Source: a virus
Length of the DNA: 42,384 nt
Virus record (IMG/VR): IMGVR_UViG_3300045988_017255
Reading direction: 5' to 3' (one strand)
Shown here: positions 15,954-42,041 of the stretch, piece after piece
Layout of the letters: every line of letters begins with the position of its first letter
Numbering within the stretch: position 1 is the stretch's first letter
The notes under the pieces: generated by a model
What the model was told of the DNA's origin: nothing
Databases searched by the model: none
Seen by the model: the letters and a program-made list of their open reading frames with translations, nothing else
Position numbers and translations under genes: made by a program

Positions 15954-16236
15954 CGGATGCATCCTCCTTTTCCGGCTCCAGTTTCCAAATATCCCGGGTG
16001 ACCTTGGAAACCTGGGGGATATCCCCTGCATACAGGGCGTTCAGGAAATCGGCCTCACTGGTTCCGCACAGAACAAAGTGTGGCTCTGTGATGACCTTGT
16101 ACCCGGAATATACGGTTGTCTTATTGCTGCCGCAAACCAGGTCGCCCACCTCGGCCACATTGCTCTCCGACCGCATAGCTACCCGGACGCCGCACCTTTC
16201 AGCCACGATGGCGTAGTAATGTCTTTGCGTCTTCAT
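15940..16236 (-). CDS. Hypothetical protein (98 aa)
   Basis: ATG at 16236 overlaps the upstream stop (ATGA). Confidence 0.55.
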   Translation of the reverse strand: MKTQRHYYAIVAERCGVRVAMRSESNVAEVGDLVCGSNKTTVYSGYKVITEPHFVLCGTSEADFLNALYAGDIPQVSKVTRDIWKLEPEKEDASDVDI

Positions 16237-16952
16237 TCCTCCACCCCCGAAATCTCGCCGTTTTGCAGCGTATACCATGTGTTTTCCTTGACGACTTCTC
16301 CGTCCACCCTTACGATTTTGGCGTCGATGATGTTTCCGTCATCGTCACGCTCCGATACCACAAGCCAGTTGCCCACAGAGCCTCTTGCAAGGCTATCTTG
16401 GCCCCATGCAACGGCGATGCACTGAGCACCATCCGCAGATGCTCTTCCATATGGGCCGGATGCAACAGCCGTGCCACTCTCACCCGATGCGGCGGCGTTG
16501 CCCCTCACACCCGATGCGGCGGCGTTGCCCCTCCAGCCCGATGCGGCGGCGTTGCCACTCCAGCCCGATGCGGCGGCGTTGCCACTCTCACCCGATGCGG
16601 CGGCGTTGCCACTCTCACCCGATGCGTTTTCCTCGGTTGCGCTCTCGCACTTGTCAAACACAAACCGCACACCTGCGTTGATAACGCCTTTCAGCCCGAT
16701 TTCTGCACCGATCTTGATATGTTTGCCGCAAACCTTGCTGTCATAGCCACTACGCTGTCCGTTGTCCTCAATCTCCACCTCGCAGTACCGGCTATCGCCA
16801 GGTCTATAGTAGCGTAGCGTGTCCAGCGGGTTCTCGCAGGCGTGGGGTCCGCGATTGCACAGCTCTGCGGTTTCCTCCGTGTACTCGCCGCCGACCTCAT
16901 ACTGAAAGCCTCGGCACCTCAAATTTTTATCAAATCCCTTGCACGCTTTCAT
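16233..16952 (-). CDS. Early protein with DUF7666-like N-terminus and SG-x-x-GNAAA nonapeptide repeats
   Basis: The N-terminal KACKGFDKNLRCRGFQYEVGGEY pattern recurs in phage proteins, from memory. The central part has 5-6 tandem 9-aa repeats. Confidence 0.6.
   Translation of the reverse strand: MKACKGFDKNLRCRGFQYEVGGEYTEETAELCNRGPHACENPLDTLRYYRPGDSRYCEVEIEDNGQRSGYDSKVCGKHIKIGAEIGLKGVINAGVRFVFDKCESATEENASGESGNAAASGESGNAAASGWSGNAAASGWRGNAAASGVRGNAAASGESGTAVASGPYGRASADGAQCIAVAWGQDSLARGSVGNWLVVSERDDDGNIIDAKIVRVDGEVVKENTWYTLQNGEISGVEE
16471..16626. repeat. 27-nt tandem repeat x about 5.7 (in-frame coding repeat)
   Basis: The core cccgatgcggcggcgttgcc is repeated with variable 7-nt linkers. Units start at 16483, 16510, 16537, 16564 and 16591. 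Confidence 0.9.
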
Positions 16953-16972: not shown

Positions 16973-17071
16973 CTATTTGCCTGGTCTATCCAGCTTGTCC
17001 ACCAGCTTCACGAACATCCACGCCACCGTAGCCGCGCCGATGATAACCAGCGTCAATGTGTAACCGTCCAT
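16973..17071 (-). CDS. Small membrane peptide (32 aa)
   Basis: MDGYTLTLVIIGAATVAWMFVKLVDKLDRPGK has a single TM segment. GGAGGAG SD upstream. Confidence 0.45.
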   Translation of the reverse strand: MDGYTLTLVIIGAATVAWMFVKLVDKLDRPGK

Positions 17072-17073
17072 GT

Positions 17074-17271
17074 TTACTCCTCCCGCTCCGCAATCCACTT
17101 GTCCAGCAGATTGGGGAAAATCTGAAAAACACGCCGTTTCCCTCCGATAACGCACAGGCCAAAAGGATACACACCCTGTTCAATCCCGTTTGACAGCGTG
17201 TCCTGCGAAATGCTCAGTCCATGCGCCCGAAGATGCTCCATGCACTCTTGCAGCGACATCGTCTTAATCAT
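17074..17271 (-). CDS. Excisionase/MerR-like HTH protein
   Basis: 65 aa. It follows cro and the ATG overlaps the cro stop. The small size fits an Xis-like winged-helix protein. Confidence 0.5.
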   Translation of the reverse strand: MIKTMSLQECMEHLRAHGLSISQDTLSNGIEQGVYPFGLCVIGGKRRVFQIFPNLLDKWIAEREE

Positions 17272-17486
17272 CGTTCCTCCTTATTCGCCGCCCGGATAGC
17301 TTCCGCAGCAGCCTTGATCTCCTCCTCCGACACGCCGTACAGCTTCGCCATTTTCTTGTAATACTTCCGTGCCGGTGCCCAGTCTCCGTATTCCCAATGT
17401 CTTACGCAGGACTGGTCAACAAACAGCTTCTTGCCTACCTGTGTGCAGGAAAGATTTGCTCTATCCCGCATCTCTCTCAATGTCAA
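17268..17486 (-). CDS. Cro-like XRE-family HTH regulator
   Basis: MTLREMRDRANLSCTQVGKKLFVDQSCVRHWEYG is an HTH_XRE pattern. TTG start with a GGAGGG SD. It is the first gene of the minus-strand early array, divergent from the lysogeny module. Confidence 0.7.
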   Translation of the reverse strand: MTLREMRDRANLSCTQVGKKLFVDQSCVRHWEYGDWAPARKYYKKMAKLYGVSEEEIKAAAEAIRAANKEER

Positions 17487-17517
17487 ATTGTCTTCCCTCC
17501 TTATATGTGAGATTTCA

Positions 17518-17546
17518 TTGACTGCGGCGGGGGCATATGCTACAAT
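17518..17546 (+). promoter_or_regulatory. Sigma-70-type promoter (TTGACT-N17-TACAAT)
   Basis: TTGACT at 17518-17523 and TACAAT at 17541-17546. It drives the 43-aa peptide gene. Confidence 0.6.
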
Positions 17547-17610
17547 GTTTCTGCAGGGATTGCCGGTTTACCTCCGCTCGTTTGTTGGCTTGACGAAAGG
17601 AGGTGAACCA

Positions 17611-17742
17611 ATGGCCAAAAACTCTGTGCGGACAAGCAAGACCGTTGCGTCCAAGGCGTCAAAAGCTTTGAGCAGCGGAAAGACCAGCAAGACCACCAAA
17701 ACGATTGCAGCGTCTGCCTTGTCCAACCGCCGGTCTAAGTGA
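17611..17742 (+). CDS. 43-aa Ser/Thr/Lys-rich basic peptide, unknown
   Basis: MAKNSVRTSKTVASKASKALSSGKTSKTTKTIAASALSNRRSK. AAGGAGGTGA SD 6 nt upstream. It has its own promoter and terminator. Confidence 0.55.
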   Translation: MAKNSVRTSKTVASKASKALSSGKTSKTTKTIAASALSNRRSK

Positions 17743-17750
17743 CCGGACAG

Positions 17751-17782
17751 CCGCCTCGTGTTACCGCACGGGGCGGTTTTTC
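17751..17782 (+). terminator. Intrinsic terminator
   Basis: 10-bp stem CCGCCTCGTG / CACGGGGCGG, loop TTACCG, then TTTTT. Confidence 0.8.
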
Positions 17783-17811
17783 TATCCCCGCCGCAGTCTG
17801 TGAGTTTTCAC

Positions 17812-17840
17812 TTGACAAATGCAACCGCCGCCGCTATTAT
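17812..17840 (+). promoter_or_regulatory. Sigma-70-type promoter (TTGACA-N17-TATTAT)
   Basis: TTGACA at 17812-17817 and TATTAT at 17835-17840. A ~190-nt leader follows before the 233-aa gene. Confidence 0.6.
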
Positions 17841-18037
17841 GTAAGTGTCAGCCAACAAAATATCGGCTATGGAACCCGCAAAAGAAGAAATTCTATGGGG
17901 GCTTGGTTTTTTGTTGCCTTTATGATTGCTCACAAGATGATTATAGCGTACATATTGTGTGTTGTAAAGTATCAAAACGACCGTTTTGTAAGTTTTGTCA
18001 GATTGCACAAAAAAACTATTCGTTTTTTGAGGGAAAC

Positions 18038-18739
18038 ATGATATTCGATATTGGCTTAATTCTCGCACGGCTTAAAGTCCCAAATAACCCGTATATCTAT
18101 TATCCAGAACAGTATGAGCAAGATTCATCGCAAAGCATTATTGCGGCAAACAATAGGTATGATTTAACTCGTTTTTCACAACACGAAGCGGCTGTTATCA
18201 GAGAAGTGTTATATACCGTTAAAACAAAGTACCCTGCGGAATATCAAGCGCTTGGGCTTGTAAATGAGGCGTATGTAATAACATATAAGCCGCGATATGT
18301 TCTTTTTGAAATTGCCGTAACAAAATATAGAAATTCGGCATCGTGTTTTGACAAGTTTGCGGTTGCTTATGCGTTTGCAAACAAAGGTTCTGATTTTGGG
18401 CTTGCCGCAATCGGTGCGTTTGAGGAAGCAATCGGAGAAATATCATTTACTGTTTTAGATAAATTCGCATCATTAAGTTTTGCAAAAATATGCAACGAGT
18501 TTTCAAAGTTATATGAGCAAGAATGGGAATTTGATAGTGCCATCTTTTGGTTAAAAAAAGCGATTTGCCGTGGCGGATTAAACAACAAATATTTTGCGGA
18601 AAGAATCAGCGAAATAGAGAAAAGAAAAATTGATATAATCAAAAACAATAAGCGCAAGCGCAACAGACGCATATCCGCTGAAAACGAAAAATTCGAATAT
18701 GACTTACACGCTGCCGCCTTGCAATTTATTCAGGAGTAA
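18038..18739 (+). CDS. Unknown 233-aa protein (AT-rich moron upstream of the repressor)
   Basis: ATG at 18038. Visibly AT-richer than its flanks. The stop lies 3 nt before the repressor-like gene. No motif recognised. The C-terminus is basic (KNNKRKRNRR). Confidence 0.65.
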   Translation: MIFDIGLILARLKVPNNPYIYYPEQYEQDSSQSIIAANNRYDLTRFSQHEAAVIREVLYTVKTKYPAEYQALGLVNEAYVITYKPRYVLFEIAVTKYRNSASCFDKFAVAYAFANKGSDFGLAAIGAFEEAIGEISFTVLDKFASLSFAKICNEFSKLYEQEWEFDSAIFWLKKAICRGGLNNKYFAERISEIEKRKIDIIKNNKRKRNRRISAENEKFEYDLHAAALQFIQE

Positions 18740-18742
18740 AAT

Positions 18743-19144
18743 ATGCCAAAAAGAGATACAGTTCGGCCCAACATGAATTCAATAGCAGAGAAGGTTTCGG
18801 CTAAAAGTTGGAGCGAAGCGTCGTTTTCGCAAATGGTTGGTAAACACAGGAGATGGCTAAGTGAGGTTAGGCGCGATAAGAACCTCCCATCCCCCAAGGA
18901 AGCCGCGAAAATGTGCGTCCTGCTGCAGGTTGATCCAGAGGACATATTGCTGGAGCAGGCAGATATCGAGCTGGTGCGGGGCCTGCTGGAAAATGAAAAA
19001 GCCCCCGGCATAAATGCCGAGGGGTTCGTGCCGACTATGAAGGATTGGGAAGAACAGGCCGAAAACTGGACGGATGACCAAATTCTTCAAGCGATGCAGA
19101 AGCTTGTGGAGATTCAGCAGAGGAGGCGCAGCGATGGGCGTTGA
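18743..19144 (+). CDS. CI-like XRE-family HTH repressor
   Basis: SIAEKVSAKSWSEASFSQMVGKHRRWLSEVRRDKNLPSPKEAAKMCVLLQVDPEDIL is an HTH_XRE pattern. Lies in the lysogeny module. Confidence 0.65.
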   Translation: MPKRDTVRPNMNSIAEKVSAKSWSEASFSQMVGKHRRWLSEVRRDKNLPSPKEAAKMCVLLQVDPEDILLEQADIELVRGLLENEKAPGINAEGFVPTMKDWEEQAENWTDDQILQAMQKLVEIQQRRRSDGR

Positions 19145-19240
19145 GCTGACAAGGAGTGCAAAAAAGGCGTTGGCAACTCTCTACACGGATTACTGCCAAT
19201 AAGCGGCGTTCCATTTACAAGGACGAATGTCTTTTCTCCG

Positions 19241-19411
19241 TCAGATGCAATCAGGACTTTTGCGTTTGATAATCCCATTTTCTTCAAGCTCCTTCCATAG
19301 TTCAACTTTTTCTTCTTCCGTCAGTGTGCGCAAGGCAGACATAAAATCCGATTTGGCGTACATGTGATGCTCTTTTCTAATTATGCCGTATTTCTCTTCG
19401 ATTGCAAACAT
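19241..19411 (-). CDS. Small hypothetical protein (56 aa) convergent with the repressor gene
   Basis: MFAIEEKYGIIRKEHH... GGAGGA SD upstream of the ATG at 19411. AT-rich. Confidence 0.4.
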   Translation of the reverse strand: MFAIEEKYGIIRKEHHMYAKSDFMSALRTLTEEEKVELWKELEENGIIKRKSPDCI

Positions 19412-19453
19412 TCGGTCTATTCCTCCACAATAAGTGTTTTCACCTATACCACC

Positions 19454-19487
19454 AAACACGGTGTTTGTTGCACACTTTTGTGCAACA
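19454..19487. promoter_or_regulatory. Two adjacent perfect palindromes (candidate operators)
   Basis: AAACAC-G-GTGTTT at 19454-19466 and TGTTGCACA-CTTT-TGTGCAACA at 19466-19487, in the divergent intergenic region. Confidence 0.45.
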
Positions 19488-19703
19488 AAATCGTAGAAAA
19501 TAGAAATTTTGTTCTACCCTCCCCATCCCCGCACCGGACGGGGAGGGTATTGCCCACGAATCACCTAACGGTTTATCGTTTGCTCTGCCATCATATCAAA
19601 AATAAATCGGGTGGCGCAATCCCGAAAAAGGCAATATCCCCAAATTTGGGGTTTGCAAAATAATGCGGGCTATGCCCGAAAAAGGGGAAGAAGGCAATTA
19701 AAC

Positions 19704-20297
19704 ATGGAGAAATCGTTGCAGGACACTTGCCGGGACGCAAAACTGGAACAGCACATCACGGCGCAGGAGATAGCAGACCAATCCGGTGTGCCTTTGTCCA
19801 GCGTTAACAACTTTTTTGCATCCACATCTAAAGCACCGGGCGTGTATGCGGCTGGTCCCATATGCAGGGTGCTGGGGGTGTCTATGGACCGTTACTTTGG
19901 CATTGTAGAGGTTGTTTTGGCGCAAGACCAAATCAAGCAGCTCCAGCAAGTCCATGACGAGGATGTGCGCCTTGCACGGATAGAGGGCGCATACGATGAG
20001 CTGTCCAAATCAGCAGAGGAGCAGAAGAAAAAAGCAAGGCGGCAGCGCACGATGCTGTATATCACATCGCTGCTGTCCGCTATCCTGCTGGGTATAGTTA
20101 CATGGTATGTGGCGCTTGATTACCGTGTGCAGGACGAAGGCCTAATCCGATCCAGGACAGCCGGTACGATTGCATGGATTGTCATTGCGCTTTTGGCGGT
20201 GGGTATCGGCGTACTTACATCCGTGCTATTGTCCACTCTTACGGCGGGCAAAAAAACCACACAAGGCGAGGAAGCAGAAAATGAGCAACTGCATTAA
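19704..20297 (+). CDS. Membrane-anchored XRE-family HTH regulator
   Basis: N-terminal HTH (ITAQEIADQSGVPLSSVNNFF), a coiled-coil middle, and two C-terminal TM segments (LYITSLLSAILLGIVTWYV; IAWIVIALLAVGIGVLTSVLL). Confidence 0.65.
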   Translation: MEKSLQDTCRDAKLEQHITAQEIADQSGVPLSSVNNFFASTSKAPGVYAAGPICRVLGVSMDRYFGIVEVVLAQDQIKQLQQVHDEDVRLARIEGAYDELSKSAEEQKKKARRQRTMLYITSLLSAILLGIVTWYVALDYRVQDEGLIRSRTAGTIAWIVIALLAVGIGVLTSVLLSTLTAGKKTTQGEEAENEQLH

Positions 20298-21372
20298 ATG
20301 CGGAACAACTCTTGTCCCGGGCGCCGTATATTGCCATCTCTGTGGCAAAAAACAGGTAACAGAGCGGCGCAAGGCATTGAAGCGGGCCAACGGCACCGGA
20401 ACTGTATACAAACTGGCGGGGCGTAGAAAATCGCCTTGGGTGGCCGCAAAAAACAAAGTGATTATCGGGCATTATGAGCGCAAAACGGCCGCGCTGGACG
20501 CTTTGGAGCGATTGAACGGCAAGAGCTTAACGGAGCGGTATAATATGACCTTTGCAGAAGTGTTTGATGCGTGGAAAGCAGAGCATTACAAGGAGATTGG
20601 CAAGCAGGGGATAGAATCATATAACAATGCCTACCGCATATTTACGCCGCTCCACGGGAAAAAGTTTCGTGATCTCCGCACCGCAGACTTTCAGGCCGTA
20701 CTTGACCCACACATGACCAAGAGCCATTCCACCGTGAACAAGTATAAGCAGCTCATAACGCAGATGTCGAACTGGGCAATCCGGGAGGAAATCTGCACGA
20801 CAAATTTTGCAAAGTTTGTCCGGCTGCCAGAAAATGTAAAAAAAGAAAAGGACATCTTCACGGTGGAAGATATCCGTAAATTGGAATCCGACAACAGCGA
20901 TGCGGCGAAAATTGTCTTGATGCTGCTGGCAACGGGTATGCGTATCGGAGAACTGTTTGCCCTACCTCTGGCAGACTGTCACGGCGATTATGTGATCGGC
21001 GGCGAAAAAACCGAAGCCGGCAGAAACCGAATTATCCCCATCCGCCCGGAGGGGAAACAATACTTTGCCTATTTTGCGAAGCAAGCAACGGGGGAGCTGC
21101 TTTTATCCGGCTACGATGGGCAAAAAGTCCCGGCGAACTTCCGCAGGCGAGATTTTTACCCGCTCCTTGACAGGCTGGGAATAGAGCGCAAGACCCCGCA
21201 CGCAACACGCCACACATACGCATCCCGGGCGGTAAAAGAGGGATTGCCCCCGGAAATGCTGCAAAAAATACTCGGACACGCCGATTATTCCACCACCGCA
21301 AACATATATACGCACATCGACGCGCAGACACTTGTGGATGCTGTTACTAACACGTTACTAACAAATAAATAA
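20281..21372 (+). CDS. int: Tyrosine integrase with N-terminal zinc ribbon
   Basis: CIKCG...CHLCG ribbon at the N-terminus. Catalytic pattern ATGMRIGE (R), HATRHTYAS (HxxR), LGHADYSTTANIYTH (H...Y). Adjacent to attP. Confidence 0.9.
   Translation: MSNCIKCGTTLVPGAVYCHLCGKKQVTERRKALKRANGTGTVYKLAGRRKSPWVAAKNKVIIGHYERKTAALDALERLNGKSLTERYNMTFAEVFDAWKAEHYKEIGKQGIESYNNAYRIFTPLHGKKFRDLRTADFQAVLDPHMTKSHSTVNKYKQLITQMSNWAIREEICTTNFAKFVRLPENVKKEKDIFTVEDIRKLESDNSDAAKIVLMLLATGMRIGELFALPLADCHGDYVIGGEKTEAGRNRIIPIRPEGKQYFAYFAKQATGELLLSGYDGQKVPANFRRRDFYPLLDRLGIERKTPHATRHTYASRAVKEGLPPEMLQKILGHADYSTTANIYTHIDAQTLVDAVTNTLLTNK
21343..21363 (+). repeat. Arm-type integrase site candidates: GTTACTAACA x2, 11-nt phasing
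   Basis: Copies at 21343-21352 and 21354-21363, inside the 3' end of int. Confidence 0.5.
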
Positions 21373-31752: not shown

Positions 31753-34041
31753 TTACACCACCAGCGGGCTTGCGCCGGTGGCACGCACCACGGCGTTGTT
31801 TTCCTTTACAATAGCGTCAAATAGTTTCTTGCCGTTAACGCTGTCCAGCACGATTGTAATATGATTTCCTCCGCCGCCGCTGTTTTTGACTTCCTCCCGG
31901 ACGATTTGGCGGATCAGATCGGCGGGTGCCTCGATGTTCGTGCCGCGCTTCTGGTCGCCCAAAACGGCCAAAAATTCCCGGTTTGCTGGGATCACCGCGC
32001 CCTGGGCCAGGCGAGGAATGTGGACATTTCCCCAATTGACCCGTCCAATGTTCACGCCAGGAATCTTGTTTAAGATGCCCGTGATGCCATTCACCATATC
32101 GCTTACGCCGCCCAGCACCCAGTTGATGCCCCGTTCAATACCCGAGATCAAGCCGTTCATAATGGTTTTCCCGAGGTTCAGCCACCATGCCGAAGTGAAT
32201 ACGGGAGCGATATAGGAATTCCAGAATTCTTTGATTTTTTGCCAAACGTTCTTAATTTTGTCCCGGATGAAATCCCAATTTGGTGCAATGGCCGCCGCCA
32301 AACTAACGCCACCGGCAAGCAACATCCCAATGCCCAAGGGTATTCCTACGCCCGTAAAAATAAGAATAATTCCGAGGACAACAAGAAAACCGCCGATCAT
32401 AGCAAGAGTTTTGCCAAGAGGGCCCCGAAGCGCCTGCGTAATGCTACCCCAATTTGGAACAATCGCCGTCGCAAGCCCAACCGCTCCAGCAACTATTAGC
32501 CCAATTCCCAATGGGATATTTGCACCGGTAAATAGCAGCACTGCTCCAAGTGCGAGCAAAGCGCCACCGACAATCGCTGTTACTGCGCCAATAGGCCCTT
32601 TCATTGCGTTTTGGATTGCTTCCCAATTAATGGCTGCAGATGCCGCCAAAGATGCAGCGCCAACCAAAAGCAATCCTAATCCGAGCGGAATATTTGCGCC
32701 TGAAAGAGCAAGTATGGCGCCAAGTACAAGGAAGGCGGCTCCAACAATACCGGCAATTACATCTATGTTGTCACTTATAAACCCTATTATGGTATCCCAG
32801 TTGACGGCAACAACGGCGGCCAAAGATGCAGCGCCAGCTATAATCATTCCAATTCCAAGCGGGATGTTTGCGCTTGTCATAACAAGGATTATGCCAAGAG
32901 CAAGCAAAGCGCTGGCGACAATAGTCACTATAACCGCAAGTGATCCTTGCAAAGTTTCTGCAATAAGGCCCCAATTTTCGGAGGCGGCGCCATATACCGC
33001 CAACGCACCAGCAACCATCAGAGCAATGCCGATCGGTATATTTGCGCCAGAAAAAGTCAACACTGCGCCCAATGCAAGAAGGGCAATTCCGGTAAACAAG
33101 GTTGCAACGGCAGTCAATCCGCTGCTGACTGTGCTTGTGAAATCCGGTGCGATTCCACCGCTTGCACTTGACCCTCCCGAGCTATCGGAATCTCCGTTCA
33201 TTGTGTTCAGCTCATCGAAAGGTGCCAGATATTTACTGGCTTTCTTCGCGGCAGAACCAACACCATCAATCGCTTTTTGCTGGTCATAAAGGCTTTTAGC
33301 CGCTTTCTGAGAAGATGCAAGAGTTGTTCCAAACAGTGCAGATAGCAGCCGAGCAGCTGTATTTACCACCGTTGTAAGCACATTTGCGAGTAGCGTAAAC
33401 GCCGGGATAACGATGTTTACAATCGGCTGGGCCAGTGTGCGCAGCGCACCTTTAAGCTTGGCAACCGCCGCCATTGCATCGGTGTTTGTCTGGATCGCCG
33501 ACCACATATACTCCCTGATTTTGCGCAGTGCAGCTGTAATGAGCGTAAAAACAAACACGCGCCTTGCAAGCCCCTTGATTCGGTTTCCAAGCTTTGTGAA
33601 TCGCTTCCCGGCTTCCTCTGCAGCGGGGGACAACTCTCTTGTGCCATTTTTTGCTCCAGCAAGCTGCCCACTGAGTTCTCCCGCCTTTCTCTTTGCATTG
33701 TCAAAAGACGCAGCGGTTTTGTTGATTTTTGCATTGATCGTTTCCACCTTTAACGCCGCCGAATCAAACTCTTTCTGCATGGCGTTCACTTGTGCTTGCT
33801 GGTTTGCAATCGAGTCGGATGTAAAAAATTCCGCTCCGCTTTTCATATGTTCAAGAGTTGCTTTTGCCGCATCGAGATTTGCGCCGAGCTGTGCCGACTG
33901 CTCTACCAGCGGGAGCTTTTCTCTTTCCAGATCATTTAGTTTTTCAGATAAACCAGAGATTTTCCTTGCAAGTGCATTGAGCTCTTTTCGCGCCTGCTTG
34001 TCGTCAACGTTTACTTCCACCACGACAGACCCATCCGCCAT
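31753..34041 (-). CDS. Tape measure protein
   Basis: 762 aa. Coiled-coil N-terminus, then many Gly/Ala-rich hydrophobic repeats (SGANIPLGIGL...). Position fits a TMP. Confidence 0.9.
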   Translation of the reverse strand: MADGSVVVEVNVDDKQARKELNALARKISGLSEKLNDLEREKLPLVEQSAQLGANLDAAKATLEHMKSGAEFFTSDSIANQQAQVNAMQKEFDSAALKVETINAKINKTAASFDNAKRKAGELSGQLAGAKNGTRELSPAAEEAGKRFTKLGNRIKGLARRVFVFTLITAALRKIREYMWSAIQTNTDAMAAVAKLKGALRTLAQPIVNIVIPAFTLLANVLTTVVNTAARLLSALFGTTLASSQKAAKSLYDQQKAIDGVGSAAKKASKYLAPFDELNTMNGDSDSSGGSSASGGIAPDFTSTVSSGLTAVATLFTGIALLALGAVLTFSGANIPIGIALMVAGALAVYGAASENWGLIAETLQGSLAVIVTIVASALLALGIILVMTSANIPLGIGMIIAGAASLAAVVAVNWDTIIGFISDNIDVIAGIVGAAFLVLGAILALSGANIPLGLGLLLVGAASLAASAAINWEAIQNAMKGPIGAVTAIVGGALLALGAVLLFTGANIPLGIGLIVAGAVGLATAIVPNWGSITQALRGPLGKTLAMIGGFLVVLGIILIFTGVGIPLGIGMLLAGGVSLAAAIAPNWDFIRDKIKNVWQKIKEFWNSYIAPVFTSAWWLNLGKTIMNGLISGIERGINWVLGGVSDMVNGITGILNKIPGVNIGRVNWGNVHIPRLAQGAVIPANREFLAVLGDQKRGTNIEAPADLIRQIVREEVKNSGGGGNHITIVLDSVNGKKLFDAIVKENNAVVRATGASPLVV

Positions 34042-34059: not shown

Positions 34060-34098
34060 TTGACTTTTTGCATTTTTTAGTCATAATAAAGATATAAT
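34060..34098 (+). promoter_or_regulatory. Candidate promoter(s) for the antisense moron
   Basis: TTGACT at 34060-34065, 16 nt, then CATAAT at 34082-34087. There is also a TATAAT at 34093-34098. Confidence 0.5.
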
Positions 34099-34118
34099 TG
34101 TTTATAGGAGGAGAAAAT

Positions 34119-34826
34119 ATGGATGCTGTTATCGGAGTATTGAGTGTTATAGGCTTTATTGTTTCTCTTGTTTTGATTGTTGTATTTGCAATCAAAAAAA
34201 AGAAAGTTCTTCCGCCATTAATTTCGCTTGTGTGTTGTTTTACGATATTTGTGGTTTGCGTCGCATTGCCGGATAGTTCTTCGCCTTCGCCTGAGCCGAA
34301 TACAGATAACGAGCAGAGCGAACAGACCGATGAGGAAAAGGCCAAAGAAATGCTAACAAAGGCCAGCAATTCCTTTGAAAAAGGCGATTACATTGATGGC
34401 ATTTCTACTTGCAAAAGTATTCAGGAATCTTATCCTGATACCAATGTTGCTGCCGGTGTGCAAGATTTTCTTGCGGACAAATTTGCCCAATACCAAAATT
34501 TTTCGGCAGAAGACCTAATGAACGAGTATATTAATAATGTCGTAAACGCAGATAAAAACATCACGGGAAATCCTGTAATTGTTTCAGGCGTTATTAGCAA
34601 AATAGATAAAACAGATTCAACCCTTGCGGTTTTACTGAGTTGCGATCAGGTCTTTTATGCAATACAGCTTAATTTTAGGGGCTCTGATGAATCCGCTGTT
34701 GCCGCATTAAACCCGGGAGATGTGATCAAGGTCATCGGCAAATGTGACGGATTAAGCGGAAAGATTCTGCTTGTATTTGATAATAAAACAAATGTAATTT
34801 TATCAAAATGCTACATAATTGATTGA
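34119..34826 (+). CDS. Membrane protein with two TM helices and an extracytoplasmic tRNA_anti-like OB-fold domain (moron)
   Basis: AGGAGGAG SD. MDAVIGVLSVIGFIVSLVLIVVFAI...LISLVCCFTIFVVCVAL. The C-terminal ...NVVNADKNITGNPVIVSGVISKI...PGDVIKVIGKC... is OB-like. AT-rich and on the opposite strand. Confidence 0.7.
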   Translation: MDAVIGVLSVIGFIVSLVLIVVFAIKKKKVLPPLISLVCCFTIFVVCVALPDSSSPSPEPNTDNEQSEQTDEEKAKEMLTKASNSFEKGDYIDGISTCKSIQESYPDTNVAAGVQDFLADKFAQYQNFSAEDLMNEYINNVVNADKNITGNPVIVSGVISKIDKTDSTLAVLLSCDQVFYAIQLNFRGSDESAVAALNPGDVIKVIGKCDGLSGKILLVFDNKTNVILSKCYIID

Positions 34827-39773: not shown

Positions 39774-39854
39774 GACACTATCTCCTTTTCTTTGGCCGCG
39801 TTTCTTCGCGGACGATAGTTTTTATAAAAACCGCTGTGCTTCGCGGGTTTTACT

Positions 39855-39899
39855 TAAAACAAAAGAGCCAACCACCGAGAATTCCTCAGCAGTTGGCTC
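39855..39899 (-). terminator. Intrinsic terminator inside the head module
   Basis: On the minus strand: stem GAGCCAAC...GTTGGCTC with an inner CTGAG/CTCGG helix, then TTTTGTTTT. Confidence 0.65.
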
Positions 39900-39940
39900 C
39901 TATTGCCCTTTCCCGCGCCCTATTGCGCGGAAGATGTTAT

Positions 39941-40117
39941 TTACTTATCGTTGATGTGCGGCATTACCGCCGCAAGAATAAACTCTTTCACACTTACGCC
40001 TTGCCGTTCTGCGGCATCGCGTATTTTTTTGCCAATTTCTTTATCCATCCTCACCGTTATGGTGTCCTGTTTTCGGTTGTACTTCGTGCTTGCCCTTATC
40101 TGCGCCTCTGTTGCCAT
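39941..40117 (-). CDS. Ribbon-helix-helix (Arc/Mnt/CopG-like) DNA-binding protein, 58 aa
   Basis: ATG at 40117 with an AAGGAGG SD. ...QDTITVRMDKEIGKKIRDAAERQGVSVKEFILAAV shows the RHH pattern. Confidence 0.6.
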   Translation of the reverse strand: MATEAQIRASTKYNRKQDTITVRMDKEIGKKIRDAAERQGVSVKEFILAAVMPHINDK

Positions 40118-40139
40118 ACTGCAAACCTCCTTTTGCAAC

Positions 40140-40168
40140 ATGGTATCACATTCCTTGCAATAAGTCAA
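40140..40168 (-). promoter_or_regulatory. Candidate promoter of the RHH gene (TTGACT-N17-TACCAT)
   Basis: On the minus strand, -35 is at 40163-40168 and -10 at 40140-40145. Confidence 0.45.
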
Positions 40169-40178
40169 CTTATACATT

Positions 40179-40210
40179 TTCAACAATCCAATCTGCAATT
40201 TATTGTTGAA
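40179..40210. promoter_or_regulatory. 9-bp inverted repeat TTCAACAAT-N14-ATTGTTGAA between divergent promoters (candidate operator)
   Basis: Perfect arms at 40179-40187 and 40202-40210. Confidence 0.55.
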
Positions 40211-40219
40211 TATCCCATC

Positions 40220-40248
40220 TTGAAATATAAGTAAACTTATATTATCAT
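40220..40248 (+). promoter_or_regulatory. Candidate promoter (TTGAAA-N17-TATCAT)
   Basis: -35 at 40220-40225 and -10 at 40243-40248. It drives two small plus-strand genes. Confidence 0.5.
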
Positions 40249-40265
40249 ATACTCACAAGGAACAA

Positions 40266-40496
40266 ATGAGACAGGCAAAAGCCGGAAAGGAAATTGACAT
40301 GAACGCCATTGAAATAAAAGCTTATGAAATTGGCATCAAGGAGGCGCACGAGCAAAGGAAAATTGTTCCCGCTTGCAAAAGTAACGCGATGTACGGTCTC
40401 ATGGAAGAAGTAAAAAACGGACTTTTGCCACTTATTAAGGCTTATGATGCAGGAGTTGCTTACGAGATCAATCGTCAAACGAAACTCGGGTTTTAA
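40266..40496 (+). CDS. Unknown 76-aa protein (moron, plus strand)
   Basis: ORF with an AAGGA SD. An alternative ATG lies at 40299. AT-rich. Confidence 0.5.
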   Translation: MRQAKAGKEIDMNAIEIKAYEIGIKEAHEQRKIVPACKSNAMYGLMEEVKNGLLPLIKAYDAGVAYEINRQTKLGF

Positions 40497-40545
40497 CTCA
40501 AACTCCCAACCAGTAAGTTACGATGGTAGAAAGGAAAACAAAGCA

Positions 40546-40719
40546 ATGAATATTAACTTGAAAACAAGGACGATTAAACTGTCCCGCCGTGAAGTAATCG
40601 ACTTACTCCTTATGCTTGATACCAACTATGAAAGCGGAAAGTGGAACGCGTTACACGACAAAATCAAGGAACAGTTGGACATTCAAGACAGTAAAGATAA
40701 CGATTTCCCCGCCCCTTAA
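40546..40719 (+). CDS. Unknown 57-aa protein (moron, plus strand)
   Basis: MNINLKTRTIKLSRREVIDLLLMLDTNYESGKW... The stop lies inside the terminator loop. Confidence 0.5.
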   Translation: MNINLKTRTIKLSRREVIDLLLMLDTNYESGKWNALHDKIKEQLDIQDSKDNDFPAP

Positions 40720-40736
40720 CCGGGGCGGTTTCTTTT
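40709..40736 (+). terminator. Intrinsic terminator
   Basis: Stem CCGCCCC / GGGGCGG, then TTTCTTTT. Confidence 0.7.
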
Positions 40737-40869
40737 ATGTTTGAGTGCTGTATTTGATTGTTTTCTTAACCTCTAAGACAATGTACCCATCGCCCTTGCG
40801 GCGGATTTCAGCATCGTTTCCGCGCTTCAAAATTGCATCGATTGCCTTTTTGACTTCTTCCCAGTTCAA
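40735..40869 (-). CDS. Small protein (44 aa) coupled to the MuF-like gene
   Basis: TTG start overlapping the upstream TGA. (M)NWEEVKKAIDAILKRGNDAEIRRKGDGYIVLEVKKTIKYSTQT. Not in the ORF track. Confidence 0.35.
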   Translation of the reverse strand: MNWEEVKKAIDAILKRGNDAEIRRKGDGYIVLEVKKTIKYSTQT

Positions 40870-42041
40870 TACAGCACCTTCATTCTTTCCCGCTGCTCCG
40901 GCAGTCCTGCCGCCACGCTGAACGCTTTGTATTTCGCGTTTAACCGCCGTAGCCTTATGTTTACCGCAGTCTCATCTTCATGCAATCCTGCTGCCTTGTA
41001 GGCGGCTTTTTCGCGCTTTAGCTTTCTAACCGTTCGTTCAATACGGCGCTGCATCTGGGTTGCCTCGTATGCCGTGTAATCCTTGCCATCAAACGTGCAT
41101 CCGTGGTCATCATCGATGTGCTCCAACTGTTCATTCGTGTAAGTGCGCTCGGACACGCCCTCAACCCACGGAAACCGCCTGTGGCGGCAGTTGGCCCCTT
41201 CCAGACCGTCAACAGCGCCCAGGCCGCAAACATCATAAATGCTCGGGTAAATGTCCCCTACACGGACGCTGTAAACACGTCCTTGCCAATCCTTATGCGA
41301 TGACCACGGTGACGGTCCCGGCTTATCTCGCGCGCCAACATGGGCCGATACTTCAAAATAGGGCGTATCCAGATATTCTGAGGATTGCTCCGTATACTTG
41401 GCGCAGATTTGAGATACGCCGGTCATTACGGCTCTTCGCACGGCAACATCGACATGATCCCGATGGCCGCTCTCGTAGTCAACCACTTTCAGACCGCTGT
41501 CCGCGAGTTCCTTTACCGCCGTTTTAATTGCCTGATTGTAGTTAATTGCACCGCTCTGCACCTGCAACGCTGCGCTGTCAAGTGCCCATTGGTACGCTTT
41601 GGCAGGTGGGAGCATCGTACGACCTGCGTCCACCAAAAAGCCAATCGAAGCGGTGATGTTTCGGAACACGTCTTGCGTTTGCCGTTTGATGGCGTCAATG
41701 GTGGTTGCATCCACCAGCACGTCAGGCTGTGTTACACGGGCAAGGTCTATGACCTCGGTGTAATACTTTTGGTTGCGCTCCACCACATCGTCTATCAGCT
41801 CGTTTAGTTTTTTCTCGCTGATGCCGGTAGTCTGGCGTATGGCCTTTTCAATCTCTTTCAGATCGATGGCGTGTGACCGCAGCGCCTTGATGTCCTGCAC
41901 CGTAACCTCGTTCAGCTCGTCCCGCAGCTTCAGCCGGGAACATATCTCCATCAGCAGGGTGTCCTCAAGGCCTCGGTATAACTCCGCCAGCTCTTCTGGA
42001 AGGGCATCCAGCAGTTGAGGGGTGAATGGATACTGGCTCAT
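40866..42041 (-). CDS. Minor head protein (SPP1 gp7 / Mu F-like)
   Basis: About 391 aa, downstream of portal across the contig junction. Pattern ...AINYNQAIKTAVKELADSGL...HVGARD...CRHR... I place the start at the ATG at 42041; the track ORF uses a TTG at 42065. Confidence 0.8.
   Translation of the reverse strand: MSQYPFTPQLLDALPEELAELYRGLEDTLLMEICSRLKLRDELNEVTVQDIKALRSHAIDLKEIEKAIRQTTGISEKKLNELIDDVVERNQKYYTEVIDLARVTQPDVLVDATTIDAIKRQTQDVFRNITASIGFLVDAGRTMLPPAKAYQWALDSAALQVQSGAINYNQAIKTAVKELADSGLKVVDYESGHRDHVDVAVRRAVMTGVSQICAKYTEQSSEYLDTPYFEVSAHVGARDKPGPSPWSSHKDWQGRVYSVRVGDIYPSIYDVCGLGAVDGLEGANCRHRRFPWVEGVSERTYTNEQLEHIDDDHGCTFDGKDYTAYEATQMQRRIERTVRKLKREKAAYKAAGLHEDETAVNIRLRRLNAKYKAFSVAAGLPEQRERMKVLY

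Follow-up and report, generated by a model that had tools for sequence, protein, structure and literature searches.

Here, we present a computational analysis of ORF233, an open reading frame (ORF) for a 233-aa protein in a 42,384-nucleotide stretch of viral DNA (IMG/VR record IMGVR_UViG_3300045988_017255; hereafter, the window), where it lies between a conserved promoter and the gene for an XRE-type repressor. The window covers all or nearly all of the genome of an uncultured temperate siphovirus-type phage of the human gut, and the host is Clostridia-type. We found that ORF233 is an accessory, exchangeable, moron-type cargo gene, and this conclusion is well supported. It is one of at least five alternative occupants of a cargo slot, and it belongs to a large, unannotated protein family. 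An initial annotation, made from the letters of the window alone, had suggested that ORF233 might be a defence or exclusion gene expressed together with the repressor in lysogens. From our analyses, we suggest that ORF233 acts in phage-phage conflict (defence or exclusion) as a tetratricopeptide repeat (TPR)-like sensor or adaptor, a reading to which we assign a probability of roughly 45%. We regard ORF233 as a credible but unproven candidate for prophage-encoded phage defence, and the evidence for this function is circumstantial, i.e., guilt by association.

A cargo slot between the repressor promoter and the repressor gene

ORF233 and the elements around it are as follows (positions are those of the window).

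17486..17268, minus strand: cro, toward which the leftward promoter likely reads
17799..18995, plus strand: swappable immunity cassette (promoter, switch/leader, ORF233 and the helix-turn-helix [HTH] domain of the repressor), delimited by the break in sibling homology
17812-17840, plus strand: P1, TTGACA-N17-TATTAT, which probably drives the cargo-repressor operon (11/12 consensus positions)
17841-17874, plus strand: nearly invariant 5' leader (GTAAGTGTCAGCCAACAAAATATCGG...), with columns invariant in the alignment of relatives
17875..17916, plus strand: stem-loop (17875-17901) followed by a T-run (17907-17912), with the same predicted fold in seven variants
17940..17968, minus strand: leftward promoter, TTTACA-N17-TATAAT (11/12 consensus positions)
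17973..18013, no strand assigned: palindrome CAAAACG-AC-CGTTTTG (17973-17988) and inverted repeat TTTTGT-N8-ACAAAA (17994-18013), possible operator sites
18038-18739, plus strand: ORF233 (233 aa), with a GAGGG ribosome-binding site at 18029-18033 and the TAA stop codon at 18737-18739
18743..19144, plus strand: 133-aa modular repressor, with an HTH N-domain to ~18995, a KAPGINAEG linker and a helical C-domain

ORF233 is a real, conserved protein-coding gene, and its orthologues are under purifying selection, with a median dN/dS of 0.12 over 81 pairs. The initial annotation had described the gene as ending 3 nt before the repressor gene, with the repressor Shine-Dalgarno (SD) sequence in its last codons, and both points hold: the ORF233 stop is separated by 3 nt from the repressor ATG at 18743, and AGGAG at 18732-18736 falls within these codons. 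The AT-richness that had been noted by eye is pronounced, the GC content being 0.373 for ORF233 vs 0.518 for the whole contig; the 702-bp interval over ORF233 ranks in the lowest 0.5% of contig windows, and the GC minimum of the contig is at 17949-18650. Likewise, ORF233-family genes lie 4-17 GC points under their surroundings in 17/17 loci examined. Together with the lack of ORF233 in siblings that have a nearly identical Cro and integrase, this bears out the earlier suggestion of horizontal acquisition.

Comparisons to sibling phages delimit the exchanged unit. Up to 17798 and from 18996 onward, phages L078, L071 and L058 match the window with 95-100% identity, and they have a different sequence between these positions. 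The sibling phages have a Cro that is 98-100% identical to that of the window, a 96% identical gene for an HTH protein with predicted membrane segments (HTH-TM; described below) and a 97% identical integrase, and they lack the cassette. Because sibling homology stops at 17798 and resumes at 18996, we conclude that 17799-18995 is a heteroimmune cassette; the C-terminal domain of the repressor belongs to the phage backbone and its HTH domain to the cassette. ORF233 was found in 0/80 phages chosen by integrase similarity (74-98% identity), many of which have the 98-100% identical Cro and the 96% identical HTH-TM gene. The cassette is ~80-99% identical in 27 other phages with differing backbones; these phages have an ORF233 orthologue with 79-99% identity, while the identity of their Cro proteins is 40-98% and their integrases are different or undetectable.

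Five cargo genes are preceded by P1 and the 5' leader (17812-17923) at 82-97% identity, and each of them is followed after 3-12 nt by a gene for a repressor of the same type. The five occupants are as follows.

Cargo 1: ORF233, in the window group
Cargo 2: FtsK-gamma and Mrr_cat protein, in L063 (which has 98% identity to the window over 17025-17945)
Cargo 3: coiled-coil and Mrr_cat protein, in L082, L084 and L089
Cargo 4: 272/195-aa protein of unknown function, in L093, L102 and L120
Cargo 5: 221-aa protein of unknown function, in L094 and L101

The four genes other than ORF233 are mutually unrelated except for the Mrr_cat domain common to two of them, and the Mrr cargo proteins match the PADLOC nuclease-effector models ZorD, LmuA and PDC-S02. 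Homology of ORF233 to the other four was rejected based on negative hmmsearch scores. Because one type of promoter, leader and repressor surrounds five cargo genes, the promoter-repressor interval is a cargo hotspot. The initial annotation had raised the question of whether related prophages carry different cargo at this position, and they do so with four other genes, two of which are Mrr-type. As expected of a moron, ORF233 is present or absent among near-identical phages, is replaced by unrelated genes and deviates in composition; the usual moron feature of an own promoter and terminator is missing, and ORF233 appears to use the repressor promoter.

The ORF233 family: predicted fold, genomic contexts and fusions

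No motif had been recognised in ORF233 by the initial annotation. Consistently, searches of Pfam, PHROGs, NCBIfam and PADLOC matched ORF233 to no family, tblastn against 50,697 deposited phage genomes gave no match, and megablast of the lysogeny module against deposited phages returned 50-nt matches only. A first search of a 5.8-billion-protein collection identified 44 relatives, and a profile search (E <= 1e-3) extended this to 228 representative clusters at 50% identity, 81 of them with E <= 1e-30. The ORF233 family is, therefore, large, unannotated and phage-associated, and comprises at least 228 clusters at 50% identity. We found no literature on such a family, i.e., on a TPR protein in a prophage immunity region or in connection with Mad3_BUB1_I_2.

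The AlphaFold2 (AF2) model of ORF233 (predicted local distance difference test [pLDDT] 91.8; predicted template modelling score [pTM] 0.88) is all-alpha and has an ordered extended N-terminal segment, helical hairpins at residues 48-202, a basic loop and a terminal helix at residues 214-232. The very basic C-terminus of the initial annotation is present in that KNNKRKRNRR makes up residues 203-212; it is not the extreme C-terminus and forms a loop between two helices, the second of which is the conserved 21-residue terminal helix. In a profile search, residues 149-188 matched designed consensus TPR (CTPR) proteins (7obi, E = 4.3e-9), and some members of the family have sub-threshold Pfam TPR and Mad3_BUB1_I_2 matches. 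A Foldseek search of PDB and BFVD with the ORF233 model returned generic TPR and Sel1 proteins as weak matches (E >= 0.08, TM-score at most 0.44) and no specific structural relative. Based on the model and the profile match, ORF233 is predicted to be a soluble cytoplasmic all-helical TPR-like protein, with the similarity to TPR and other helical-repeat proteins at the level of the fold. Invariant residues are Y21, Q28, S33, Y41, D42, S47, E50, N76, E77, K84, R86, E129, Y159 and E160, and the strongest conservation is in residues 20-97 (YYPE..Q.DSSQSI...YDLTRFS.HE...KYP..Y..LGL.NE.Y.I.YKPRYVLFEI), which are not canonical TPR. Because several of these residues vary in distant members, we read this region as a probable binding or structural core rather than a catalytic site.

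Several known types of protein from lysogeny modules were considered for ORF233. An ImmA-like protease partner of the repressor was rejected, since ORF233 has no HEXXH motif and no Peptidase_M78 match, and no second histidine comes after the nearly invariant H49-E50; a true Peptidase_M78 gene exists in another phage, L123. Neither ORF233 nor its relatives matched an antirepressor family in the Pfam and PHROG scans. The scenario that the initial annotation had named as speaking against a defence function, homology to a protease or an anti-repressor, was thus not encountered. An RRNPP receptor was also rejected, since ORF233 lacks an HTH domain, has only 233 aa with ~4-5 hairpins and has no peptide gene adjacent to it; the sole small ORF nearby (17611-17742) is basic, lacks a signal sequence and lies outside the cassette. 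As for BstA, ORF233 had no KilA-N or related match in Pfam or PHROG.

The family gene is located in the lysogeny module and co-oriented with the repressor and the integrase in 8/10 distinct contexts. The contexts include S24-type CI or short XRE repressors and tyrosine or serine integrases, and the positions of the family gene are as follows.

After S24-type CI repressors: L007-9, L049 and L054 (in L054, the gene precedes that for a serine recombinase)
Adjacent to short XRE repressors: the window group, L004-6, L013 and L053
Three genes downstream of the repressor: L001
At the prophage end after the tape-measure gene: L010-12 and L051-52
As a lone chromosomal gene without phage context: L055

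A scan of contigs by exact peptide patterns identified only three Clostridium sp. genomes with a family gene. In two otherwise unrelated contexts, a gene for a DUF3862/BLIP-like membrane protein (210-217 aa) lies directly 5' of the family gene, namely, in the lysogeny module of L001 (2203-2835) and at the prophage end by the tape-measure gene in L010/L052 (7344-7997; Clostridium sp. isolates).

Among 137 core-domain proteins, ~12 are membrane-anchored by N- or C-terminal segments and two (P0081 and P0085) are fused to Mrr_cat. P0081 consists of a Zn-ribbon, FtsK-gamma, the family domain and Mrr_cat, and is encoded in the same slot next to an XRE gene; in effect, it appears to be an L063-type nuclease with an ORF233 domain inserted. 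P0085 consists of a transmembrane (TM) part, the family domain and Mrr_cat. Three family members carry a MuF-like CxxC N-domain and one carries bPH_2. Among the family members searched, PADLOC matches are confined to the fused Mrr_cat domains of P0081 and P0085 (the nuclease parts of ZorD, LmuA and PDC-S02).

Two common pieces are shuffled among cargo proteins of lysogeny modules (L086 3344-4354, L094 2202-2867, P0126, P0133, P0145 and P0172), a MuF/SPP1-gp7-like CxxC...R.Y(S/C).SG...FP.(F/L)P domain and a C-terminal PKSLSG(Y/F)SRM motif. The ORF233-family domain accompanies these pieces in some proteins and is missing in others, a pattern that resembles a domain-shuffling network.

The Mrr fusions bring up the idea that ORF233 is an anti-defence or self-immunity factor that binds and restrains a nuclease, Mrr-type or other, from the host or a co-resident element, thereby shielding the prophage or its progeny. 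A functional link is suggested by the location of the family domain between the DNA-binding and Mrr_cat domains of P0081 and by the insert-free cargo in L063; moreover, the phage carries a ParB-methyltransferase fusion and, therefore, is engaged with restriction. However, anti-defence genes are usually early lytic and not placed with the repressor, PHROG and Foldseek searches revealed no similarity to known anti-restriction proteins, and the Mrr link concerns 2/137 family members. We consider this idea quite improbable.

The diversity of contexts and anchors also bears on whether ORF233 could be a lysogenic-conversion factor outside defence, which would bind a host protein and alter the physiology of the lysogen to its benefit (stress tolerance, envelope or colonisation). 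The moron-type placement and composition, the many host protein interactions that TPR scaffolds serve, the ~12 membrane-anchored relatives, the DUF3862/BLIP-like membrane protein directly 5' in two unrelated contexts (L001 and L010/L052) and the one member that is a plain chromosomal gene all agree with such a role. The slot-mates and fusion partners are, however, defence-type nuclease effectors rather than host-physiology genes, and we found no metabolic or virulence-type domains linked to the family, arguing that this role is unlikely.

The repressor operon, its switch region and the function of ORF233

The initial annotation had taken the gene downstream of ORF233 to encode a CI-like repressor of the XRE type, and our analyses agree with this assignment. 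The Pfam HTH_3 match of the 133-aa protein is sub-threshold (18.3 bits vs a cut-off of 23); PF01381 is present in many of its homologues, which their sources list as XRE regulators. In the AF2 model (pLDDT 82; built with database homologues), the N-domain matched SinR, the lambda cI N-terminal domain, HigA, C.AhdI and 434 Cro with a Foldseek probability of 1.0. The protein lacks an S24 self-cleavage domain. Judged from the model and its homologues, it is a modular XRE/lambda-repressor/SinR-like phage repressor. While the public gene call starts the repressor at M11 (P0192, 123 aa), all homologues share the start at M1 (18743). Siblings encode a single 112-135-aa repressor at the same locus with a different HTH type, a KAPGINAEG-type linker and one of several helical C-domains, and swaps of the repressor N- and C-domains are evident among them.

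More broadly, the small repressors of this phage group (18996-19144 in the window; loci L014-L048 and L056-L090) comprise at least four types of HTH N-domain and at least five types of helical C-domain, which are recombined at the conserved linker TDDP.IKKAPGINAEG or similar.

The close spacing of ORF233 and the repressor gene would also be expected if ORF233 (toxin) and the 133-aa HTH protein (antitoxin and autoregulator) formed a toxin-antitoxin-like pair that stabilises the prophage. Besides the tight coupling of the two genes, the similarity in fold of the XRE protein to HigA-type antitoxins and the presence of potentially toxic nucleases in the same position in other phages are in line with such a pair. 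Against it, the XRE protein has the linker and C-domain of the sibling repressors at the same locus and, therefore, is a phage repressor; family members occur without an adjacent short XRE gene (L007-9, L010 and L055); and the TPR-like fold has no known toxin activity. Altogether, we hold a toxin-antitoxin-like pair to be highly improbable.

The initial annotation had proposed a consensus-like promoter at 17812-17840 followed by a ~190-nt leader, and both are present. P1-type consensus sites are no more frequent than by chance (7 vs 5.8 +/- 2.6 in shuffles); rather than the consensus match by itself, it is the conservation in relatives that supports P1, both hexamers being invariant or nearly so, with a variable spacer, in an alignment of 14-15 diverged phages. 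Moreover, P1 precedes all five cargo types. The leader between P1 and ORF233 has a GC content of 0.365 and contains an 11-nt inverted repeat, the left arm of which (17850-17860) is within the 5' leader and pairs with 17909-17919; this repeat may be an operator or an RNA element.

In the stem-loop at 17875-17901, seven variants that were folded separately have compensatory changes in the inner stem (AGAA/UUCU, CGGA/UCCG, CGAA/UUCG and ACGG/CCGU), with modest energies of -10 to -16 kcal/mol. A terminator scan left the hairpin and T-run at 17875-17916 uncalled, and single-sequence folding of the leader was no better than that of shuffles (z = -0.6 and -0.8). RNAalifold on the leader alignment returned only an invariant long-range stem, and the outer stem did not covary; the inner hairpin is, therefore, supported by the separate folding of the seven variants. 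We speculate that this element could be an attenuator of P1 or the terminator of a short P1 RNA antisense to the lytic leader.

The leftward promoter faces P1, and the two start sites are ~85-90 bp apart. Its -10 and -35 elements are conserved in the aligned relatives with a variable spacer, and the -35 element is TTGACA in L063 and L082. A minus-strand promoter scan upstream of cro identified no promoter besides 17968..17940, and a cro-like gene starts ~25 nt left of P1 in L030, L032 and L034. The leftward promoter is likely the early lytic promoter toward cro. We infer that two face-to-face promoters are the best reading of the leader, which would then be the genetic switch of the phage. In the switch of coliphage 186 and P2, the pR and pL promoters are face to face. 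The window resembles these phages in having two conserved convergent promoters, inferred here from sequence conservation, and differs from them in the hairpin and T-run between the promoters and in the XRE/SinR-like repressor.

Both palindromes that the initial annotation had noticed in the leader are present. The repeat TTTTGT...ACAAAA (17994-17999 / 18008-18013) is conserved in relatives together with the motif TTGCACAA; CAAAACG-AC-CGTTTTG is located at 17973-17988 rather than at 17983-17998, and its palindromy is lost in relatives. The contig as a whole shows no enrichment of the operator-like 8-mer CAACAAAA (66 matches vs 54 +/- 7 expected).

ORF233 might instead be a switch regulator, i.e., a TPR-like sensor, co-repressor or anti-repressor that binds the S24-less repressor and adjusts the maintenance of lysogeny or its induction, similar to SinI/SinR or ImmA/ImmR-type partners. 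ORF233 is tightly coupled to the repressor gene by a 3-nt gap and a shared SD region, the same HTH type follows it in 27/27 subfamily loci, and the operator region is co-inherited with it as a block. In addition, the repressor lacks S24 and is SinR-like, so induction needs another input, and a short XRE gene is directly adjacent to the family gene in four other contexts (L004-6, L013 and L053). However, the same promoter, leader and repressor type function with four unrelated slot genes, including two nucleases, and siblings with other HTH types have no gene at the ORF233 position. Family members also follow self-cleaving S24-type CI repressors (L007-9, L049 and L054), and others are at a prophage end or occur as a lone chromosomal gene. 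The lack of HEXXH and of a protease or antirepressor family match, as well as repressor C-domains that vary freely among ORF233-bearing phages, argue in the same direction. Weighing these points, we find a switch regulator unlikely.

We favour a function of ORF233 in phage defence or exclusion because of its placement, for which rexAB and BstA are precedents, its Mrr-type slot-mates that match defence-effector models, and the effector-like fusion partners of its relatives. According to this model, ORF233 would be transcribed with the repressor in lysogens by reading through the leader hairpin and would work as superinfection exclusion or abortive infection. Its TPR-like surface would bind a protein of the incoming phage or a host factor needed by this phage. 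In the Mrr-type nuclease, membrane-anchor or MuF-like fusions, binding may turn on the attached effector, while stand-alone ORF233 may act by sequestration or via a partner in trans. A bolder version, which is possible but on balance doubtful, is that the family is an unrecognised sensor module of gut-Firmicutes prophage immunity, i.e., a compact TPR-like domain that recognises a phage protein, acting alone by sequestration or driving interchangeable effectors (Mrr nuclease, membrane segments or MuF-like domain), in a new hotspot between repressor promoter and gene. The probability not taken up by defence or exclusion and the four alternatives goes to some other function for ORF233.

Several observations weigh against a role in defence. 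The defence-model search that had been suggested with the initial annotation did not support it, in that PADLOC-DB v2 had no match for ORF233 or for its relatives P0021, P0105, P0116 and P0126. The TPR-like fold is generic and carries little information on the target, and 111/137 core-domain proteins are stand-alone with no recognisable effector. No second gene conserved alongside the family was found across contexts, and the member in L055 is a lone chromosomal gene. ORF233 is tied to one repressor HTH type in 27/27 subfamily loci, with the repressor gene 5-6 nt downstream, which is compatible with a regulatory role. Finally, a conserved hairpin and T-run lie between P1 and ORF233, so that ORF233 and the repressor can be expressed from P1 only by read-through and P1 transcripts may largely end before ORF233; a promoter scan revealed no convincing second promoter for the two genes.

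It is well known that accessory or defence cargo occurs on the prophage repressor transcript in a mosaic hotspot. Genes on the promoter of a prophage repressor are an established site of defence functions, as in the case of lambda rexAB and of BstA, which is located in a mosaic hotspot (PMC8585504). ORF233 resembles rexAB, which is co-transcribed with cI from PRM, in being accessory cargo of a repressor operon at a mosaic position with presumed expression in lysogens. However, the two have no relation in sequence or fold; rexAB is a pair of sensor and membrane channel downstream of the repressor gene, whereas ORF233 is a single, predicted soluble TPR-like protein, the gene for which is upstream, between promoter and repressor. 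Similarly to BstA (PMC8585504), ORF233 represents a single-gene family that is strongly associated with prophage repressor loci and located in a mosaic hotspot, with a minority of homologues outside prophages. In contrast, BstA has a KilA-N-like DNA-binding domain, for which ORF233 has no match, and a cognate aba self-immunity DNA element, and it is from Gram-negative hosts and encoded downstream of the repressor, while ORF233 is from gut Firmicutes-type phages.

The hotspots of P2-like phages and P4-like satellites (PMC9122126) likewise have a fixed backbone position with many unrelated cargo genes, including nuclease systems, and ORF233 is nominated here as a defence candidate because the same guilt-by-position logic applies. 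They belong to another phage group and host; the ORF233 slot is inside a repressor operon and holds putative defence cargo. Avs/STAND NTPases, which have TPR-like sensor arms and N-terminal Mrr/REase effectors, share with some members of the ORF233 family a helical-repeat sensor with interchangeable effectors; the family differs in having no NTPase domain, a small size (~230 aa), mostly no effector and no PADLOC Avs match. RRNPP receptors (AimR of arbitrium and phage Rap) are also TPR-type proteins in lysogeny modules of Firmicutes phages, near regulators of the lysis-lysogeny decision, but ORF233 lacks the HTH domain or Rap-type N-terminal bundle, has fewer hairpins (~4-5) and no secreted-peptide gene, and its slot also holds unrelated genes.

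What is new here is the large unannotated family, the slot upstream of the repressor gene, and the delimited cassette that is exchanged at the repressor linker in abundant gut phages. Temperate phages of gut anaerobes are abundant, and their lysogeny-expressed cargo is almost unexplored. If ORF233 acts in defence, a new protein family with at least 228 clusters at 50% identity would become an anti-phage candidate, and a delimited slot with five alternative genes in a widespread phage group could be mined for defence candidates as has been done for the P2/P4 hotspots. The cassette would be a compact case of a modular immunity unit (promoter, operators, cargo and repressor DNA-binding domain) that is swapped at a linker, which would inform on heteroimmunity and recombination, and one regulated transcript would provide both homologous-phage immunity and heterologous-phage defence. 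If, instead, ORF233 is a switch regulator, S24-less SinR-like phage repressors would have a partner of a new kind.

The phage genome and its other accessory genes

On the minus strand, the window encodes a portal protein, a large terminase, a minor head protein, Erf, NinB and a ParB-methyltransferase fusion. The plus-strand lysogeny module is short (17.6-21.4 kb), and its last gene encodes a tyrosine integrase (20281-21372). The terminase is just 35-49% identical to those of the nearest deposited phages, which infect Eggerthella and Clostridium. The 42,384-base window has no tRNA genes.

Between cro and the immunity cassette, 17611-17742 is an ORF for a basic 43-aa protein rich in Lys, Ser and Thr (MAKNSVRTSKTVASKASK...), antisense to the presumed lytic leader. 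It has its own extended -10 promoter (17518-17546), a GGAGG ribosome-binding site and a strong terminator (17749-17778). The protein lacks a signal sequence and had no match in an NCBIfam search. The ORF is kept in several sibling phages, and L062, L069, L072 and L088 have an 81-aa ORF there instead. In the early region, 16233-16952 (minus strand) is a GC-rich stretch (GC 0.65) for a 239-aa protein that contains SGESGNAAA / SGWSGNAAA in tandem and matches PHROG 4433 (function unknown).

Downstream of the cassette, 19134-19305 is a deletion scar in which only the 5' remnants of two convergent cargo genes are left. The two are intact in L066, L071 and L073, where one has 114 aa and begins with MGVELTRSAKKAL... 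and the other has 74 aa and begins with MELSNAKVLIASDGEKTF.... Relative to L071, ~335 bp are missing, and the same deletion is found in L078. A strong GC-rich hairpin at 19510-19557 (CCCTCCCC...GGGGAGGG) separates a minus-strand 72-aa gene from the HTH-TM gene and lacks a clear T-run on both strands; when 17400-19700 was scanned against Rfam, the only two matches were at chance level and fell on this hairpin.

The HTH-TM gene (19611-20297; probable start ATG 19701) encodes an XRE-type HTH protein with two predicted membrane segments, and there is a 17-nt overlap between its stop and the start of the integrase gene (20281). A homologue is located directly 5' of the integrase gene in most related phages, e.g., the 191-aa protein of L004 with 29% identity. 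Such coupling of a membrane-anchored HTH protein to an integrase is unusual.

Two further AT-rich islands are found among the structural genes. In the island at 33.7-35.2 kb, 34098-34826 (plus strand) encodes a 242-aa protein with N-terminal membrane segments; the gene is an insertion flanked by the tape-measure gene (31753-34041) and the tail-assembly genes and runs antisense to the tail genes, and its orientation and composition suggest that it is another moron. The third island, at 39800-40900 amid the head genes, contains several small ORFs and is possibly a small accessory or toxin-antitoxin-like module; among its products, an 85-aa minus-strand protein (39941-40198) resembles, by eye, a ribbon-helix-helix protein.

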